Assembly: GCA_016839745.1 (NCBI GenBank)
Contig: JAEOTS010000173.1
Location: 1-25,692, forward strand
Length of the DNA stretch: 25,692 bases
Direction of reading: 5' to 3'
DNA from: Promethearchaeota archaeon
Lineage (GTDB): Archaea; Asgardarchaeota; Lokiarchaeia; Sigyniarchaeales; SOKP01
This document shows positions 10,025 to 23,325 of this stretch, piece by piece (within the stretch, counting starts at the first letter, position 1; each line of letters starts with the position of its first letter). A program made the position numbers and the translations under genes. Under the pieces are notes generated by a model. That model searched no databases. It was not told the origin of the DNA and was given only the letters and a program-made list of their open reading frames with translations.

Positions 10025-11104
10025 ATGGATTCTAAGAATATTTTAGGAATTGATATAGGAGGAGCAAATACTAAAGCTGCTCTAATTAAATTTAGAAATT
10101 CAGAAGTTTTCGAATCTTTTTCAATAATAGAATACTTTCCTTTCTGGGAAAAGACTTTAAATGATATTCCTAATATGTTTGTGAAAATTGTAGAAAATCT
10201 AATTATAAAAAACAATATAAATTTAGAAAATGTTGACTTTATCGCCATTACAATTACTGCTGAGCTCTCGGATGCGTTTCAGACTAAAAAGGAAGGAGTG
10301 CTCAGTATATTGGAAGCTTTAAAACAAGTTTTTGAAATTGAAAAAATGTTTTTTGTTAATAGTAACAATGAATTTATAAATTTCAACCAAGTCGAATCTA
10401 ATCCTATTTCAATTTCAGCAGCGAATTGGGTCTCAACTTCACTATTTTTAGGGAATTTCGTGCCAAACTGTATATTAATTGATGCGGGTTCAACCACTAT
10501 TGACATAATACCGATTTTAAATTCAGTACCAGTTGCTAAGGGGAAAAACGATATAGAACGGTTAATTAACCATGAATTGATTTACACAGGTGGTCTAAGA
10601 GCAACAATTCCTTCAATAACACACTTTGTCCCCTATAAAGAAAAGATGGTTAGGATTTCTTTTGAAAAATTTGCGCTTATTTCTGACGTACATAGAATAT
10701 TAAAAAACATTTATGAATCAGAATACATAAACGATACAGCGGATAATCGTTCTAAATCTTTAAACGATTGTTATGCTCGTTTAGCGAGGATGATATGTAT
10801 GGATTTAGACTCAATTTCAATAGAAGATTTAGACTCAATCGCACAATATATATATGACAAGCAAATCGAGATTGTTTTAAAGGAAATTCTAGAGTTTGTA
10901 AAAGGATTAACTGTAAGGCAACCTGATTTTAGCAGAAATCCTCGATTTGTTTTAACTGGACTATCCGCTGATTTTCTTATTAGACCTGCATTAAAAAAAA
11001 TAGGATATGAAAAAATTTTAAATTACGAGCTTTTGACTAATATTCCTGACCAAATTAGTTCTTCCGCGTTCGCTGTAGCGGGAGCATTTTACTTTCAATT
11101 ATGA
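10025..11104 (+). CDS. mfnF: MfnF-like hydantoinase/oxoprolinase-family methanofuran biosynthesis protein
   Basis: LGIDIGGANTK, ITAELSDAFQTKKEG, AANW, LIDAGSTTIDIIPI, ELIYTGGLRA and DTAD.RSK..CYARLARMIC. The likely start is ATG 10025 (MDSKNILG) rather than 9980. Confidence 0.8.
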   Translation: MDSKNILGIDIGGANTKAALIKFRNSEVFESFSIIEYFPFWEKTLNDIPNMFVKIVENLIIKNNINLENVDFIAITITAELSDAFQTKKEGVLSILEALKQVFEIEKMFFVNSNNEFINFNQVESNPISISAANWVSTSLFLGNFVPNCILIDAGSTTIDIIPILNSVPVAKGKNDIERLINHELIYTGGLRATIPSITHFVPYKEKMVRISFEKFALISDVHRILKNIYESEYINDTADNRSKSLNDCYARLARMICMDLDSISIEDLDSIAQYIYDKQIEIVLKEILEFVKGLTVRQPDFSRNPRFVLTGLSADFLIRPALKKIGYEKILNYELLTNIPDQISSSAFAVAGAFYFQL

Positions 11105-13161: not shown

Positions 13162-16071
13162 TTGACTATTATAAACCTAGACTCAAAAAAAGTTGAAGAT
13201 TTGATTTTAAGCGGTAGTTACGAAAAAGCCGCTGGTGAACTATTTGAAATTATCGAACACCCCGCGAATTCTGATAAAGAACTAATTTACGATAGTTTAA
13301 CGTTATTAAATAAAATCTGTGATAAATCTCCCGCAATTTCGTTAAGAACGGTTAAAAATTTGGCAAACACGATAAATGATCTTAACTCCTGGGTTAGACT
13401 AGTGTCTTTAGAAATTCTGTACCAGATTACTATGTATCGCCCGAATTTACTAATTGAACTCATGCACGAGATTAGATTACGGTTATTTGACCAAGAATCC
13501 TCTATTAGACGTTTAGCAGTAAAAATAATGGGAAATTTAATTCTCTCATTACACATCGATAGAGAGGAATTGCAAAACATTATCGAAGAATTTACGGAGA
13601 AATTAATGGATAATGACTGGAAAGTTAAACTTCAAGTTATTAAAACACTTAAAAAAATATTAAATCAAGATTTTACGAAGATTCGGGAATATGAGCCATT
13701 ACTATCTATTATAATCGTAAATTTAAGGGATGAAGATGACGATGTAGCAAGATCAGCAGCAGACCTCCTAAAAATTCTTGGTACGTATTTTCTATCCAAA
13801 GAAAAAATTACTTATGTTCTATTAAATCTTCTTTACAATGAGGAATCACGAGTTAAAGAGTTAATAATCTGGTTATTCGGAGAAATCGGAAAAGAAAAAT
13901 CATCAGAAATAATCCCTATTATTCCAAAATTGATAAATCTCTTAAAAGAGAATAACTATCGAATTCAACTCCGCGTCATTGATTCTCTTGTAACTATAGC
14001 GGAGAATAATTTTGATCAAATTTGGGCAAACCTAATTACTGCACTATACACAGGTGATACTGAATTTAGAAATATTGTTATTAACGCTCTCTATCATCTA
14101 TGTCAAAGTAATATTATGGAAATTTTCAATTATATTTTTGAAGAATTTGAAAATCCTTCAGAAAATGTTAGAGACGGGGTTGCACTCGTTTTTAAACGCC
14201 TTTATGAAGAGTATCAGGTAGAAATTGAGAATGAGATCACAAAGATTTTATATATGCTAGAATCTAAATATTGGCGCGAACGACAAAAAACAATAATTCT
14301 GCTAAGAAATATCTGCTTTATCTTAGAGAGTAAAAAAGTTGCAGTTTGGATTTTTATTGAATTGGAGAAAAATTTGAGAATTGAAAATGATCCAGATGTA
14401 AGTGAAGAAATTCTCTATACAATAAAGAATATTAAGGCAAATTTTCAAGACATTGATGAAACCATCCAGGAAGTTAACGAAGATCTGGACCTATTTTTCA
14501 AAAAAATTCAGGAATTCCAAAAAATACCTGCACAATTTCGAGAAAAAATGAATTTATACATTCAAGAATTCAAATTTCATCAAACTGAAATAGAGTTAGA
14601 TAAGATTTATCGTAAAATCCTAAATAAAATAAAGAAATTTAATAAAAGATTAAACAAATTCGAATACAAAAGGTTGGCTTTCAATTTAATAGAGGATTGG
14701 GAAGAGACTAAAGTCATGATAATGGACGAACTCAGCATTATTAAGGCTTTCATTTCAGAAGTGTTTGAAGAGAAGAAGGAAGAATTTACTTTAAATTTAA
14801 AATCAAAAATTAAACTTTTAGGAGATCGTATTAATATCTTGAAAGCTCAATACGAAGATATACAGGAATATAACTTTCTTGGTCATTTGGATGATTTATT
14901 AATAGAAAAAGTTGAAGATAAAGAACTTGAAGAGAAATTCACCCAAATTACGCAGCTAAGAAATTATATGTTTAAACTAGATGATGATATTCGTGAAATA
15001 TTAGTACAAAATGTAGAATTTAACGAGATTTTCAAAACGCTTTTAAGTAAATGGGTTGGTTTCAAAATTGAACTTCAAGAATTTCTAAGCGATTTAGATA
15101 GGAAAATAAAATCAACAAAAGATAAGATAGTAGAAGAAATCCAACGCTCTAATGGAACTGTTGAAACTCAAAAATTAAACTTGCTTTCTTCAGTATTATT
15201 CCAAGGTCATATTCAATCAATAATAACGCAAGGAATTGAAGGGCTTAAAAGATTCAACGATAACTTTGATAATTTAAAATTAAAATTAGAGACATTACTA
15301 AAGAAAAGCGAATTCTCAGATGTTAGAAAGCTAATACAGATGAATACTAATCAAATTCAAAATTATATTGAAGAATACGAAAATCAAATTGATAACCTAG
15401 TTGGAAAAATGACTGAAGATAATGACGTGTTCAATCTTTTTGCGAGACCATCAGTCACAAAATTTGTTTCATTTAAAGAAGTTCTAATCAATAAACTAAA
15501 AGCCTTCACCCTGAAAAGTATCGACGAGCTTACATTGAGTCAAATCAAGTATTACCTTGACGTCATAAATCCTATTAAATTAGAAAGTCTCGCCTCTTAT
15601 ATTGACATGGATATAAACCTATTGAAAGAAAAAATTGTAAAATTCGTGAATAAGAATAAACTCAATGCACGAATTATAAAAGATGAACTCTATTCTCCAA
15701 AAAGAGAAGACATTATTGAACCGAGAGATATCCTCTTTTTCAAAAACATTAAAACTCTTGGAAATAACTTATACTTTAACTTTAAACTAAATAACCCAAC
15801 AAATCTACTATTTTCAGATTTACAGATATCTCTCAAAACACCTGAATATCTAAGCTTTATTCGTAATGAAAGTTTCCCTAAATATCTCTATCTTAATGAA
15901 TTAAAACCCGGAAATGTGTTTAAATTTAATTATGTCTTAAAATTAAAGCATAACATTGAAAAAAATTTAGCTGATCCTTCAGTTGATGAAGTAAAACTTA
16001 ATATTTATTATAAGGATCCTTTCGATATCACTCGTAAAATTACAAAAAAAATTGATCTCCTTTTACCTTAA
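13162..16071 (+). CDS. Large HEAT-repeat / coiled-coil protein with PCI-like winged helix and C-terminal Ig-like domain
   Basis: HEAT signatures in the first ~420 aa (DLNSWVRLVSLEIL, DQESSIRRLAVKIMG, DNDWKVKLQVIKTL, DEDDDVARSAADLL, NEESRVKE, ENNYRIQLRVIDSL). A long E/K/L heptad-rich middle region follows, then IKLESLASYIDMD..LKEKIVKFV..NKLNARI and a beta-rich C-terminus. Confidence 0.7.
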   Translation: MTIINLDSKKVEDLILSGSYEKAAGELFEIIEHPANSDKELIYDSLTLLNKICDKSPAISLRTVKNLANTINDLNSWVRLVSLEILYQITMYRPNLLIELMHEIRLRLFDQESSIRRLAVKIMGNLILSLHIDREELQNIIEEFTEKLMDNDWKVKLQVIKTLKKILNQDFTKIREYEPLLSIIIVNLRDEDDDVARSAADLLKILGTYFLSKEKITYVLLNLLYNEESRVKELIIWLFGEIGKEKSSEIIPIIPKLINLLKENNYRIQLRVIDSLVTIAENNFDQIWANLITALYTGDTEFRNIVINALYHLCQSNIMEIFNYIFEEFENPSENVRDGVALVFKRLYEEYQVEIENEITKILYMLESKYWRERQKTIILLRNICFILESKKVAVWIFIELEKNLRIENDPDVSEEILYTIKNIKANFQDIDETIQEVNEDLDLFFKKIQEFQKIPAQFREKMNLYIQEFKFHQTEIELDKIYRKILNKIKKFNKRLNKFEYKRLAFNLIEDWEETKVMIMDELSIIKAFISEVFEEKKEEFTLNLKSKIKLLGDRINILKAQYEDIQEYNFLGHLDDLLIEKVEDKELEEKFTQITQLRNYMFKLDDDIREILVQNVEFNEIFKTLLSKWVGFKIELQEFLSDLDRKIKSTKDKIVEEIQRSNGTVETQKLNLLSSVLFQGHIQSIITQGIEGLKRFNDNFDNLKLKLETLLKKSEFSDVRKLIQMNTNQIQNYIEEYENQIDNLVGKMTEDNDVFNLFARPSVTKFVSFKEVLINKLKAFTLKSIDELTLSQIKYYLDVINPIKLESLASYIDMDINLLKEKIVKFVNKNKLNARIIKDELYSPKREDIIEPRDILFFKNIKTLGNNLYFNFKLNNPTNLLFSDLQISLKTPEYLSFIRNESFPKYLYLNELKPGNVFKFNYVLKLKHNIEKNLADPSVDEVKLNIYYKDPFDITRKITKKIDLLLP

Positions 16072-16118: not shown

Positions 16119-16160
16119 TATCGAAAAAATGAATAATTTATAACGAAAATATTAATATAA
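16119..16160 (+). promoter_or_regulatory. Putative selD1 promoter: two CGAAAA motifs 22 nt apart, the second acting as BRE before a TATA-like box
   Basis: TATCGAAAAAA (C at 16122) and TAACGAAAATATTAATATAA (C at 16144, 81 nt before the ATG). The same layout occurs upstream of selD2. Confidence 0.55.
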
Positions 16161-16224: not shown

Positions 16225-17262
16225 ATGTTACAAGAAGAAGAGAGTTATCGATTAACGCTCCAAACGAAATTATTCGGATGAAACTGTAAACTCGATTCTA
16301 AGAAATTAGACACGCTTTTGGCTAATGCAGGGTTGAAAGGGGATATCGAAGATTCTGCAATTATACCGGTTCCAAACACTAATTTAGTAATGGTTAAGAA
16401 TATTGACATCTTTACACCAATTATCGATGAACCAGAAATAATGGGCGAAATAGCCGCAGTCAATGTAACTAATGATGTATTCGCGTTAAATGTCCCAGAA
16501 ATCTCAGGTATGCTTGTTTTTCTCGGGATGAAAAAGAATATGCCTATGCATGTCGCAGAAGGAATATTGATAGGTATAAGAAACTTTATCGAGAATAAAA
16601 TTGATTCAAAAGTACTTGGTGGCCATACGATCTACTCTGAATGGCCTCTTATTGGCGGAGAAGCTTCTGGATTTATCAATAAAGATAAAATAATTAAAAA
16701 GAACTACGTGAAAGAGGGGGATGCATTAATACTAACCAAACCCGTAGGAAATCAAGCAATCATGGCAGCATACCGATTACAGAAAAATAACCCTGATCTC
16801 TTAAAGGCTTTTTCTAAAGAAGAAATTGATGAATCGATAGATTTAGCCGTAGAGTATATGACTATGCCGCTTCAAAGCGTTGTAAAAGCAATTCACTCTT
16901 ATCAAGATATGTCTTTTGTGCACTCAATGACAGATGTTTCTGGATTTGGACTTTCAGGACATTTAAAAGAGATGCTTCAAAATTCAAATCTATCTGCTAA
17001 TATCAAGAAGGTTCCGATATTTAAACTTGCTAAAGAATTAGCGTATGAATTTGGATACAAATTTGACGAATGTGAGATGCCTGAAACTGCGGGTGGAATG
17101 CTACTTTCTGTGGATCGTAAGTACGCTGAAGAGTTCTCAGAACGACTCGACAACGAGTTTCATGTGTCTAATTGGATTATAGGAGAGATTGATAACATTA
17201 ATGAACCTAGACATGTTCGCGTTTCAAAAGATGTTGAATATGTCGAAATAACTGAAATATAA
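16225..17262 (+). CDS. selD: Selenophosphate synthetase (selenide, water dikinase), selenoprotein paralog 1; TGA 16279-16281 = Sec19; 345 aa
   Basis: GAGGTGA RBS directly before ATG 16225, giving MLQEEESYRLTLQTKLFG-U-NCKL in frame with the track ORF at 16318. Further motifs: EDSAI, NIDIFTP, NVTNDVFAL, GGHTI, LTKPVG, MTDVSGFGLSGHL and ETAGGML. A SECIS follows the stop. Confidence 0.95.
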
Positions 17263-17334
17263 CGATGTTAATGATGTAGGCTAAAACACTGCAAGTGACT
17301 GCCTATTGAAAAAATCCGTTGCACAACGGCATCG
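17263..17334 (+). promoter_or_regulatory. Eukaryote-type SECIS element in the 3' UTR of selD1
   Basis: Outer stem CGATG/CATCG, ATGA at 17271-17274, stem GTAGGC/GCCTAT, unpaired AAAA at 17283-17286, mini-stem CAC(T)/(A)GTG, GA at 17308-17309, and extra hairpin CCGTT-GCAC-AACGG at 17316-17329. Confidence 0.88.
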
Positions 17335-17367
17335 AATAGCTAATCCTTATTTTTCTTTTAAATTATT

Positions 17368-17508
17368 TTAATTTTTCGTTTTTTGTAAATTTCGTCTTTT
17401 CCACTCTTTTAAGTACCAATTCAAGAAGTCATTTGTGACTCCTAAAGAGTTTTTTTTTTGATTTTGGAAATCTTCTAATTTTTTCTGTTTTAACCGGAAA
17501 TTAAACAT
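17368..17508 (-). CDS. Putative 46-aa basic small protein between the selD paralogs
   Basis: ATG 17508 to TAA 17368 gives MFNFRLKQKKLEDFQNQKKNSLGVTNDFLNWYLKEWKRRNLQKTKN. A TATA-like TTTATAAATA lies on the minus strand at 17566-17557. Confidence 0.45.
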   Translation of the reverse strand: MFNFRLKQKKLEDFQNQKKNSLGVTNDFLNWYLKEWKRRNLQKTKN

Positions 17509-17620
17509 AAAACGAGATTGAGTAAGATTTACTTAGATAAACTCAAAATCAAACCGTATTTATAAAGTGATGTAGCATAAGAATATTACAATTCGAACTG
17601 ATATCGTTGCTATTATTACT

Positions 17621-17661
17621 TATCGAAAAAAATAATAAATATAATCGAAAAAATTAATAAA
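17621..17661 (+). promoter_or_regulatory. Putative selD2 promoter: two CGAAAA motifs 22 nt apart, the second acting as BRE before a TATA-like box
   Basis: TATCGAAAAAA (C at 17624) and TAATCGAAAAAATTAATAAA (C at 17646, 82 nt before the ATG). This mirrors selD1. Confidence 0.55.
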
Positions 17662-17727
17662 CATTAATTCATATCAAAATCGTATTAGAATTAAATAAAA
17701 ACGAATTTCGTAAAAAGTGTGAGGTGG

Positions 17728-18759
17728 ATGACTGAAGAAAAAAAGGACTATCGATTGACAAAGCAAGTTAAAATCTATGGTTGATCGTGTAAACTTGGTG
17801 CTAATCAATTAGAAGAATTACTGGAGAAAACTGGTTTAAAAGGATTTATTGAAGATGCTGCTATCGTGCCCGTTCCATCTTCCGATATGGTTCAAGTGAA
17901 AAGTATTGATATTTTCACACCTCTCGTAGATGAACCAGAAATAATGGGCGAAATCGCTGCTTGCAATGTTACTAACGATATTTTCGCGATGAATGTTCCA
18001 GAAGTTTCAGGAATGCTCGTGTTTTTAGCTATCAATAAAAACACTCCAATGCATATTGCAGAAGGAATTCTTAAGGGAATTAAGAGATTTATGGAACAAA
18101 AATTACATTCTAAAGTAGTAGGAGGGCACACCATATATAGCGAGTGGCCCCTTATTGGTGGGGAAGCATCTGGTTTTGTAAACAAAAACAATTTAATTCG
18201 AAAACACGGTGTGAAGAAAGGTGATAAGTTACTCTTAACAAAACCAATCGGATTACAAGCTATTATGGCAGCATATAGGTTACAGAAAGATTCTCCTGAA
18301 ATGTTGGAAGAATTATCATCGAACGAACTCAACAATTCAATTAAATTAGCCTTAAACCTAATGACAACATCTAATCAAGGAGTAGTAAAAACGATTTATA
18401 CTTATAACGATTTCTCCTTTATACACGCTATGACTGATGTTACTGGCTTCGGATTGTCTGGTCACTTGAAGGAAATGCTACAAAATTCTGGATTATCTGC
18501 GATTATTGAAGCTATACCTTCAATTAAACTCTCAAAAGACCTTTCTAAGGAATATGGATACGCTTTTAGCGAATGTTTGTGCTCTGAAACGGCGGGAGGT
18601 ATGCTGATTGCTCTGGATCCGAGTAGCGTAGAAGATTTTTCTAATACGCTCTCCAGTCAAGGCATTTCTAATTGGATTGTTGGTACTATTGATAACAAAG
18701 AACCTGAACTTGTAAGGATCTCGAAAAAAGTTAACAATATTGAAATAGATAATGTATAA
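17728..18759 (+). CDS. selD: Selenophosphate synthetase, selenoprotein paralog 2; TGA 17782-17784 = Sec19; 343 aa
   Basis: GAGGTGG RBS before ATG 17728, giving MTEEKKDYRLTKQVKIYG-U-SCKL in frame with the track ORF at 17866. Further motifs: EDAAI, SIDIFTP, NVTNDIFAM, GGHTI, LTKPIG, MTDVTGFGLSGHL and ETAGGML. A SECIS follows the stop. Confidence 0.95.
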
Positions 18760-18829
18760 TGATGTCAATGAAATAGGCTAAAACACGTATGTGGGTGCTT
18801 ATTGAGAACCCCGTTGCTCAACGGCGTCA
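18760..18829 (+). promoter_or_regulatory. Eukaryote-type SECIS element in the 3' UTR of selD2
   Basis: Outer stem TGATG/CGTCA, ATGA at 18768-18771, stem ATAGGC/GCTTAT, AAAA at 18780-18783, mini-stem CAC/GTG, GA at 18804-18805, and extra hairpin CCGTT-GCTC-AACGG at 18811-18824. Confidence 0.88.
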
Positions 18830-19017: not shown

Positions 19018-19377
19018 ATGATTATGGATAAGGAAAAAGAATATTATAAAATTCTCGAAGTCGAAGAAGACGCTTCTGAAGAAGAAATTAAACTGGCTTA
19101 TCGTAGATTAGCGAAAAAATATCATCCCGATCTTAATAAAACCGATCCCAAGGCTAAAGATAAATTTATTAAACTGCACGAAGCCTACGATACGCTAAGC
19201 GATCCTCAGAAAAGAAAAATCTATGACCAAGCAGGATACAACCCACGAAACATAGACTTAAGTGATGTAATTTGGCGTAATAACTCCGTTCGATTTAGAG
19301 AAATTTTAAGACAAATATACGCAAATTTTTATAGAACTCCATATAATAAACCTCCTCCTGAAGGGATGTATACATAA
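19018..19377 (+). CDS. Small J-domain (DnaJ-like, class C) protein
   Basis: [46 protein letters not shown]. No G/F-rich or zinc-finger region. Confidence 0.9.
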
Positions 19378-21681: not shown

Positions 21682-23325
21682 TCAATCTTGTCTTAATTTT
21701 TTCTTTAAAATTACACTTCTTATTATACCGATTCCAGCTAGACCGACTAGAGCTCCGCCTGTTAAACTCATACTTAGTTGAATTGTGTTACCTAATGAAG
21801 TTGAATCCATAACTAAATTCATTTCTTCTTGCGCTAAATATGGCATCACATTATTCCTAAAATTAGGTAACCACGAAAGAATCATTGCAATTTCATCATC
21901 TTCTAATTGGTTTGCCATCTTTAAACCAAAGCTAGCAGCAGAATCAGGGTTTTCCACTGCGTAAAACCATTCTCCTAATCCTTTTTGATTTACCAGTGAA
22001 AATTCATTTGAAACATTCCATAGAGATCTAGCCGACTTAAGAGATATATTAGAGGGAATTACAGCTGTGTTTTGACTATGATAACCTAACTCGAATCCAT
22101 ATACCGTAGTCGCTTTTAAATCAATGGGAAATCCAAAAGGATATAATGCCCTCCCATCAGCAGTGCCGTTAGTCCAGACTTCTAAGAAGATAACTTTAGC
22201 ATATTCGCTTAAAGTCATTCCCTCTCCATCTGGAGGAGGAAGTGTAATTAAAACTGGAACCATGTTCCACTTGAACGACTCATTCCACAACCAATTTAAA
22301 ATCATATCGATTTGGTAATCTTTTAAGCTAAATTCTACTTTTAACTCTTCCTTGATTGTAGAGTTTTCAGCAGCTGCAATCCATTCAAATATTCCCATGT
22401 CGTTGGTGAGTGATTTTTCGTTGTTATCGTCCCAAAGAGCATTTATTGAAGATCTAGAGATATTTGATGGTTTTAAGCGACCAACTTCAAATCCAAAAAG
22501 AGGATCGTCTATTTCATCAAGAATCTCACTGAAGTCATATCCATCTTCATAAAGTGTACAATTAGCCCATTGATCATAAAAATACATTTCAGTTATTTCC
22601 TTCGTGTCCATTCCAGTATATTCTGGCATAACTACGGACATATTTGCAACTATCATTGGAATTGCAACAGGAACAAAGTAATCTCTGTAATAATCAGCTA
22701 ATTTGACTAGTTGATTCCATGTAGCGTTATATCCTGTAATTAACTCTTGTTGTAATGTTGAATTTCCGATAGCCTTATCACTTAATTCAAGGAAATCTAA
22801 AACACCTGTACCCATCGTATTATTACCTATCAAACCAGGAAGAGTTTCGGTTCCTTCTATAAGACGAAACTTAGCATTTCCATACCATAGGTTTTGCTGA
22901 TAGTATTCAGATATCCCCTTAATTGGGGGATATCCCATCCCCTTTAGTGATGAGCTATAGGTAACCGGAATAATTAATACCCAATGTATCCATTTATCGA
23001 AAAGCATTGTTAAAGGTACTACTCCTAACACTGGCTCAGTATGTAATGTCATATTTATTAAAAACATGAAAAATGTCGCGTTTACTATTGCTTCCAACTC
23101 TGAAAGACCTTTCTTTCTTATGTCTCTTAAAGCTCTTGGAATACCTAGCTCAGCAATCATAGATTCAACCAATGGAAGTGCTTCTTCTTCAATACCTATT
23201 AAACCCTCGTCGACAGAACTCTCAACCATATCGTTAATAGATGTATTGAGGAACATTCCCCCCGGTATTAACACGCCCCCTAAAGCGATTAGGACTATTG
23301 AAGTAATTAAAACTTTTTTTGACAT
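21682..23325 (-). CDS. Membrane-anchored protein with N- and C-terminal hydrophobic helices and a repeat-containing extracellular region
   Basis: N-terminal VLITSIVLIALGGVLIPGGMFL and C-terminal MSLTGGALVGLAGIGII followed by a basic tail. It has internal repeats and 14 N-x-S/T sequons. Confidence 0.75.
   Translation of the reverse strand: MSKKVLITSIVLIALGGVLIPGGMFLNTSINDMVESSVDEGLIGIEEEALPLVESMIAELGIPRALRDIRKKGLSELEAIVNATFFMFLINMTLHTEPVLGVVPLTMLFDKWIHWVLIIPVTYSSSLKGMGYPPIKGISEYYQQNLWYGNAKFRLIEGTETLPGLIGNNTMGTGVLDFLELSDKAIGNSTLQQELITGYNATWNQLVKLADYYRDYFVPVAIPMIVANMSVVMPEYTGMDTKEITEMYFYDQWANCTLYEDGYDFSEILDEIDDPLFGFEVGRLKPSNISRSSINALWDDNNEKSLTNDMGIFEWIAAAENSTIKEELKVEFSLKDYQIDMILNWLWNESFKWNMVPVLITLPPPDGEGMTLSEYAKVIFLEVWTNGTADGRALYPFGFPIDLKATTVYGFELGYHSQNTAVIPSNISLKSARSLWNVSNEFSLVNQKGLGEWFYAVENPDSAASFGLKMANQLEDDEIAMILSWLPNFRNNVMPYLAQEEMNLVMDSTSLGNTIQLSMSLTGGALVGLAGIGIIRSVILKKKLRQD

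Follow-up and report, generated by a model that had tools for sequence, protein, structure and literature searches.

Duplicated genes for selenophosphate synthetase (SPS, or SelD) have been described both in animals and in archaea. In the metazoan SPS1/SPS2 (SEPHS1/SEPHS2) duplications, one paralog always exchanges selenocysteine (Sec) or Cys for another residue and acquires a different function (PMC4561486). For the Asgard archaea, a recent study (Huang, Xiao & Zhang 2024, ISME J, PMC11227280) reports that more than 90% of the Sec-using organisms have SelD as a selenoprotein, that the elements found on selD are mostly of type II and resemble the eukaryotic Sec insertion sequence (SECIS; eSECIS-like elements), and that 51 organisms of the Loki- and Thorarchaeia have two or more selD genes. 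Here we describe a tandem pair of Sec-encoding selD genes, the upstream selD-N and the downstream selD-S, in a 25,692-nt stretch of DNA from a Promethearchaeota archaeon of the Lokiarchaeia (contig JAEOTS010000173.1, C158 in our numbering), which was studied as a whole contig and is called the window below. The pair represents the same phenomenon in the same archaeal group. The core finding, multi-copy Sec-selD in Loki- and Thorarchaeia, is already published, and an earlier note on this DNA overrated its novelty. A term search of the supplements of that study for the names of metagenome-assembled genomes (MAGs) of this lineage found none. Compared with the passages of the study that we consulted, our analysis adds the tandem layout, a single-origin clade of copies with the motif GUNCK (U, Sec), signature substitutions, a selection analysis and a shared promoter element. 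The window thus adds detail to a published phenomenon, of which the single tandem origin of the N copy, the residues that mark the N clade and a 38-nt promoter element held in common with a split YedF-like gene pair are possibly new.

We consider it very likely that the two genes encode functional Sec-SelD paralogs which arose by one tandem duplication, and that each forms its own transcription unit whose UGA codon is decoded via a SECIS element. The assembly to which the window belongs has 3.53 Mb in 192 contigs with 32% G+C, and is estimated to be 89% complete with 5.8% contamination. The genes and their ribosome-binding sites are as follows.

16225..17262, plus strand: selD-N, the derived paralog, from ATG to TAA, a Sec-containing selenophosphate synthetase of 345 aa
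17728..18759, plus strand: selD-S, the ancestral-type paralog, from ATG to TAA, a Sec-containing selenophosphate synthetase of 343 aa
16217..16223, plus strand: Shine-Dalgarno-like GAGGTGA of selD-N, read from the sequence and kept in all orthologs
17721..17727, plus strand: Shine-Dalgarno-like GAGGTGG of selD-S, read from the sequence, directly 5' of the ATG

Each gene contains a single in-frame TGA, which is codon 19 in both cases (16279-16281 in selD-N, context F-G-U-N-C-K; 17782-17784 in selD-S, context Y-G-U-S-C-K). Both proteins pass the 125-bit cut-off of the NCBIfam selD model TIGR00476 (selD-N, 181.8 bits; selD-S, 199.7 bits) and contain AIRS N-terminal and AIRS_C domains above the gathering score, which is the PurM-superfamily architecture. 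They share 61% identity over their full length, and their closest solved structures are human SEPHS1, Leishmania SEPHS2, E. coli SelD and A. aeolicus SelD. In an alignment to the E. coli chain 3u0o, the Sec codon of both copies falls on Cys17, while Cys21 and Lys22 fall on Cys19 and Lys20. We take Cys17 and Lys20 of E. coli SelD, together with the ATP-metal ligands D51, D68, N87, D91 and D227, to be its catalytic and ligand positions. The recoding of TGA is site-specific, because TGA terminates five other open reading frames (ORFs) in the window, three ending at 11104, 13001 and 21676 and two on the minus strand at 21682 and 24897. A plain ORF scan yielded only truncated selD frames of 314 aa (16318-17262) and 297 aa (17866-18759). 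The earlier note had described two full-length copies with a TGA at codon 19, each preceded by a ribosome-binding site and with intact Lys/Asp/Asn motifs, had equated the Sec position with E. coli Cys17, had pointed to TGA as an ordinary stop elsewhere, and had expected standard gene callers to truncate both genes; all of this agrees with what we found.

The genome has a complete set of genes for Sec insertion, so that the lack of such machinery, which the earlier note had named as fatal to its proposal, does not apply. SepSecS is encoded in the assembly with a score of 411 bits, above the cut-off. The candidate Sec-specific elongation factor (EFSec) is an EF-Tu-like GTPase that matches the selB model best and carries the archaeal Pfam domain aSelB_III, and PSTK is likewise encoded in the assembly; the PSTK and EFSec scores lie below the curated NCBIfam cut-offs, though a Sec-specific model is the best match for each. 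Outside the window, some 80 nt upstream of SepSecS, lies the tRNA-Sec gene (C150:5449-5596), with EFSec about 3 kb away on the same contig. The tRNA-Sec gene is interrupted by two introns, a 28-nt one in the anticodon loop and a 30-nt one in the T loop. After splicing, the tRNA has the archaeal 9/4 fold (9-bp acceptor stem, 4-bp T stem), a 4-nt D loop, a long variable arm, a G discriminator and a CUUCAAA anticodon loop with the anticodon UCA. This gene was located only through BLAST with an intron-less tRNA-Sec from a complete relative; ARAGORN and the Rfam model RF01852 missed it until the introns were removed, and a strict custom tRNA-Sec descriptor returned nothing credible in the genome. 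Other tRNA-Sec candidates were rejected, as the best Rfam match proved to be a tRNA-Gly and another an intron-containing tRNA-Leu, and the relaxed SeC calls of ARAGORN did not hold up. A T-loop intron has been reported in the tRNA-Sec of Lokiarchaeum (PMC4989117), and a tRNA-Sec with two introns was not found in the literature compared. We propose that tRNA-Sec, PSTK, SepSecS and the archaeal EFSec would together read the UGA of each selD transcript as Sec under the guidance of the SECIS, and that both proteins would make selenophosphate.

Structured elements begin straight after both selD stop codons.

17263..17334, plus strand: SECIS-1 of selD-N, 72 nt, a eukaryote-like type II element of the 3' untranslated region (3'UTR) with an extra 3' side hairpin
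18760..18829, plus strand: SECIS-2 of selD-S, 70 nt, a 3'UTR type II eSECIS-like element

The predicted fold energy of SECIS-1 is -16.7 kcal/mol. When 36 selD 3'UTRs from the genus were aligned, RNAalifold and a hand-drawn structure agreed on four helices, namely an outer stem, a 6-bp stem over an invariant UGA..GA core, a CAC/GUG ministem and a side hairpin on the 3' strand. Of the alignment cells, 94.6% were paired as against 27-46% when the partners were slid, compensatory double changes occurred in 11 of the 19 pairs, and the observed covariation was reached by none of 500 shuffles. The UGA and GA columns are invariant and the AAA stretch is nearly so; the ministem that follows this stretch is paired in 91.7% of cells, with zero double changes. 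The covariation bears out the proposal in the earlier note that each copy has its own 3' SECIS. No SECIS family was reported by Rfam for the window at the gathering score, nor among matches up to E = 10, and by this test the two elements lie outside the curated eukaryotic SECIS families, though they are eukaryote-like in form. They are the type II eSECIS-like element known from Asgard selD genes (PMC4989117; PMC11227280). The SECIS of the Lokiarchaeota SPS (PMC4989117), which resembles the eukaryotic type II SECIS as ours do, is likewise located in the 3'UTR; its UGA..GA core is kink-turn-like, its main stem is short, and a further stem is present at the apex. The elements described here differ from it by the conserved 3' side hairpin, which turns the structure into a three-way junction.

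The distribution of the pair indicates an old event rather than a peculiarity of one assembly. Among 41 related genomes, 13 of the 24 other species of the genus have two TGA-containing selD genes, on the same contig wherever coordinates were listed, and other families of the order have one copy. Across 301 genomes of the phylum, the pair was found in about 14 species of a second genus of the same family, and elsewhere the copies were single. Where both copies were recovered, the upstream one reads GUNCK (GUDCK in two cases) and the downstream one GUSCK, and every single-copy genome reads GUSCK, outside two cases at contig ends. The order N-then-S on one contig recurs in 27 independent assemblies from the two genera, and the 18 codons before the TGA, including a YRLT motif, are conserved in all copies; the earlier note had asked whether sequencing reads would uphold the TGA codons and the tandem arrangement, and this recurrence answers in their favour. 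We extracted 97 selD sequences, 27 of N type and 70 of S type, for the tree and for the residue comparison. Maximum-likelihood trees unite the N copies in one clade, with a support of 100/100 in a tree of 16 rows and an SH-aLRT support of 100 in a tree of 27 rows from both genera. This clade comprises the genera g1 and g12, has a long stem of 0.25 and is nested in the fully supported clade of family f1, while all outgroups read GUSCK and selD-S groups with the single-copy GUSCK SelD of other genera and families. Within the N clade, the order of branching is broadly the same as among the S copies. Because the N clade is single and nested in the family, and because all outgroups are of the S type, the pair goes back to one tandem duplication followed by several losses, and this duplication took place within one Lokiarchaeal family, in an ancestor that at least two genera share. 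Losses of the N copy are seen, for example, in a five-species clade and in several single species, some of which are 98-100% complete. An independent archaeal duplication that keeps Sec in both copies, as suggested in the earlier note, is thereby upheld, with Sec present in 97 of 97 sequences. As a separate observation, another family of the phylum has a SelD without Sec that scores like the bacterial type, at about 400 bits (e.g. G261:C12:110681-111607), and is part of an open frame of about 750 aa and thus of a fusion protein; two genomes hold this Sec-free fusion SelD plus a normal UGA-containing SelD.

Both copies have evolved under strong constraint. In pairwise Nei-Gojobori comparisons of 14 species with both copies, the median dN/dS was 0.081 for N and 0.110 for S, and since both values are far below 1, neither copy is decaying; neutral evolution of one copy, which the earlier note had listed as a way for its proposal to fail, is not what we found. 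U19, C21, K22, D43, D61, N80, D84 and D237 are invariant in all N and S sequences, and these positions align with the E. coli catalytic and ligand residues. The two types are cleanly separated at only four positions among the 97 sequences.

Position 20, next to Sec: Ser in the S type; Asn in the N type (Asp in two)
Position 216: Asn in 66/70 of the S type; Leu in 27/27 of the N type
Position 234: Ala in the S type; Ser in the N type
Position 239: Thr in the S type; Ser in the N type

In a structure alignment, the residue corresponding to Asn216 also appears to be Asn in human SEPHS1, and the E. coli alignment is gapped there; a literature look-up found no role for Asn216. The comparison with the metazoan SPS1/SPS2 duplications (PMC4561486) is instructive here. 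In both cases a selenophosphate synthetase gene was duplicated independently and both copies were retained over the long term; in contrast to the animals, Sec, Cys21, Lys22 and the Asp/Asn ligands are kept in 27/27 N and 70/70 S sequences, and a paralog devoid of Sec or Cys is not seen. Of the Asgard selenoprotein families, only SelD is widespread in eukaryotes as well, and the eukaryotic SECIS has been proposed to descend from that of SelD. Old paralogs that both retain Sec, unlike those of every animal SPS duplication, offer a natural experiment on why Sec is retained in the enzyme on which Sec synthesis depends.

The two genes also have a sequence element in common, which lies about 65-70 nt upstream of each selD ATG.

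16120..16157, plus strand: 38-nt promoter element of selD-N, an exact pattern match, conserved upstream of N orthologs
17622..17659, plus strand: 38-nt promoter element of selD-S, an exact pattern match, conserved upstream of many S orthologs

The pattern, ATCGAAA-N6-ATAA-N5-ANCGAAA-N3-TTAATA, resembles two BRE/TATA-like units. There are only three good matches in the 3.5-Mb genome, the two selD sites and one at C17:25029-25066 (L151:230-267); each of 31 genomes of the genus contains the element 0-3 times, with the three-site arrangement recurring across the genus, and the reversed pattern, as a control, gave zero matches. The third site precedes a dsrE-tusA operon (L151:329-937; C17:25128-25736), and this operon also follows the non-selD site, at a distance of about 60 nt, in all 8 of the 8 other species examined. 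The operon encodes a DsrE-like protein of 119 aa with a CGVC motif and a TusA-like protein of 75 aa with a CPLP motif, the latter with YedF models as its best NCBIfam matches, below their cut-offs (42 vs 79 bits and 36.6 vs 110 bits). Bacterial YedF is a fusion of a TusA/SirA-like and a DsrE-like domain that is statistically tied to SelD and has been reported as absent from archaea (PMC5322559). The pair at the third motif site is like it in combining a CGVC-bearing DsrE-like with a CPLP-bearing TusA-like protein, but the two genes are not fused, their order is reversed and the scores fall below the YedF cut-offs; the pair looks like a split and reordered YedF. We infer that the 38-nt element is a promoter or operator and a candidate site of a selenium regulon, and its distribution points to a small selenium-handling regulon. 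Since the two selD genes share this element, they would be co-regulated rather than differentially regulated, and the differential regulation considered in the earlier note is weakened.

Each selD gene would be its own transcription unit, with the 38-nt promoter element, a strong ribosome-binding site, the UGA at codon 19 and a SECIS after the stop. We suggest that the N copy has been kept for the exchange of selenium with partner proteins by a specialised flexible Sec loop, and not for a different chemistry, because the substitutions S20N next to Sec, N216L, A234S and T239S are fixed in it. Several points weigh against this reading of the pair as a whole: expression, Sec insertion and enzyme activity are, for both copies, predictions from sequence; the specialisation of N rests on four substitutions with no known role and on the long stem branch of 0.25; S is the only copy in several species of the genus whose genomes are complete, so that N is dispensable in some lineages, which simple dosage redundancy explains equally well; and the exact sister of the N clade among the individual S lineages is left unresolved by the trees, which makes the age of the duplication uncertain. 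That the tandem is a strain chimera of the assembly, or that one copy is a pseudogene in which TGA is a true stop, we regard as effectively refuted. The MAG is indeed fragmented and carries some contamination, but the recurrence of the N-then-S order in two genera, the conservation of the codons upstream of the TGA, the low dN/dS of both copies and the covarying SECIS on each of them speak against such an artefact.

Dosage redundancy, in which both copies do the same job and the second only raises the SelD output for a large selenoproteome, is an alternative that we hold to be unlikely but take seriously. The catalytic residues are all identical between the clades, both copies have the same promoter element, the N copy was lost repeatedly in close relatives, and the relatives within the genus include bin41, the MAG with the largest archaeal selenoproteome (PMC13188914). 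However, the copies have drifted to 61% identity during their long coexistence without any sign of gene conversion, N shows a long stem branch followed by a tighter constraint than S, and its changes are fixed at near-invariant positions such as 216. An obligate or preferred N/S heterodimer with asymmetric roles would fit the requirement of SelD activity for dimerisation (PMC7595633), the location of the ATP site between the chains of the dimer, and the adjacency of the genes under a common promoter motif; yet many species have S alone, so that at least S must work as a homodimer, and we find this explanation improbable. We give a similarly small chance to the idea that S supplies SepSecS and N feeds a pathway other than Sec synthesis, for instance one that leads to a selenium cofactor or to selenium-modified tRNA. 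Selenophosphate does have several prokaryotic clients (PMC4561486), and in some relatives a gene of the HGD-D family, whose bacterial members are linked to selenium genes (PMC5322559), lies between N and S; but a search of this genome, at its 89% completeness, revealed no tRNA 2-selenouridine synthase, and no further selenophosphate-using enzyme was identified here. Extending the specialisation of the N copy, it can be imagined that both Sec-SelD proteins and the split YedF-like DsrE/TusA pair form one selenium-trafficking regulon under the 38-nt element, in which N, with its S20N/D and N216L changes, serves a different partner; this proposal is tentative and, taken as a whole, rather doubtful. 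If it is true, N would take selenium from, or pass selenophosphate to, a partner other than that of S, and SPS would have subfunctionalised with Sec kept in both copies.

As for the surroundings of the pair, a protein of 969 aa with N-terminal HEAT repeats (13162-16071) is encoded immediately upstream of selD-N, and a J-domain protein (19018-19377), an enoyl-CoA hydratase and a protein with a MoCF-biosynthesis domain are encoded downstream; a link of these four neighbours to selenium is not evident. In the relatives G008 (L060:2439-3731), G003, G004, G104, G205 and G299, a reductase gene lies between selD-N and selD-S. Its product is a 430-aa double-cubane-cluster anaerobic reductase of the HGD-D family (461 bits on NF040772), and no ortholog above the cut-off was found in the present genome. 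In the present genome, the space between the selD genes holds a small antisense ORF.

17368..17508, minus strand: antisense small ORF between the selD genes, 46 aa, basic; it may not belong to the selD system

In tblastn searches, intact homologs with 54-89% amino acid identity were found directly 3' of selD-N in 9 relatives, and the open frame is kept even in species in which similarity at the DNA level is not detectable. Judging from this conservation, the 46-aa ORF is probably a real small gene.

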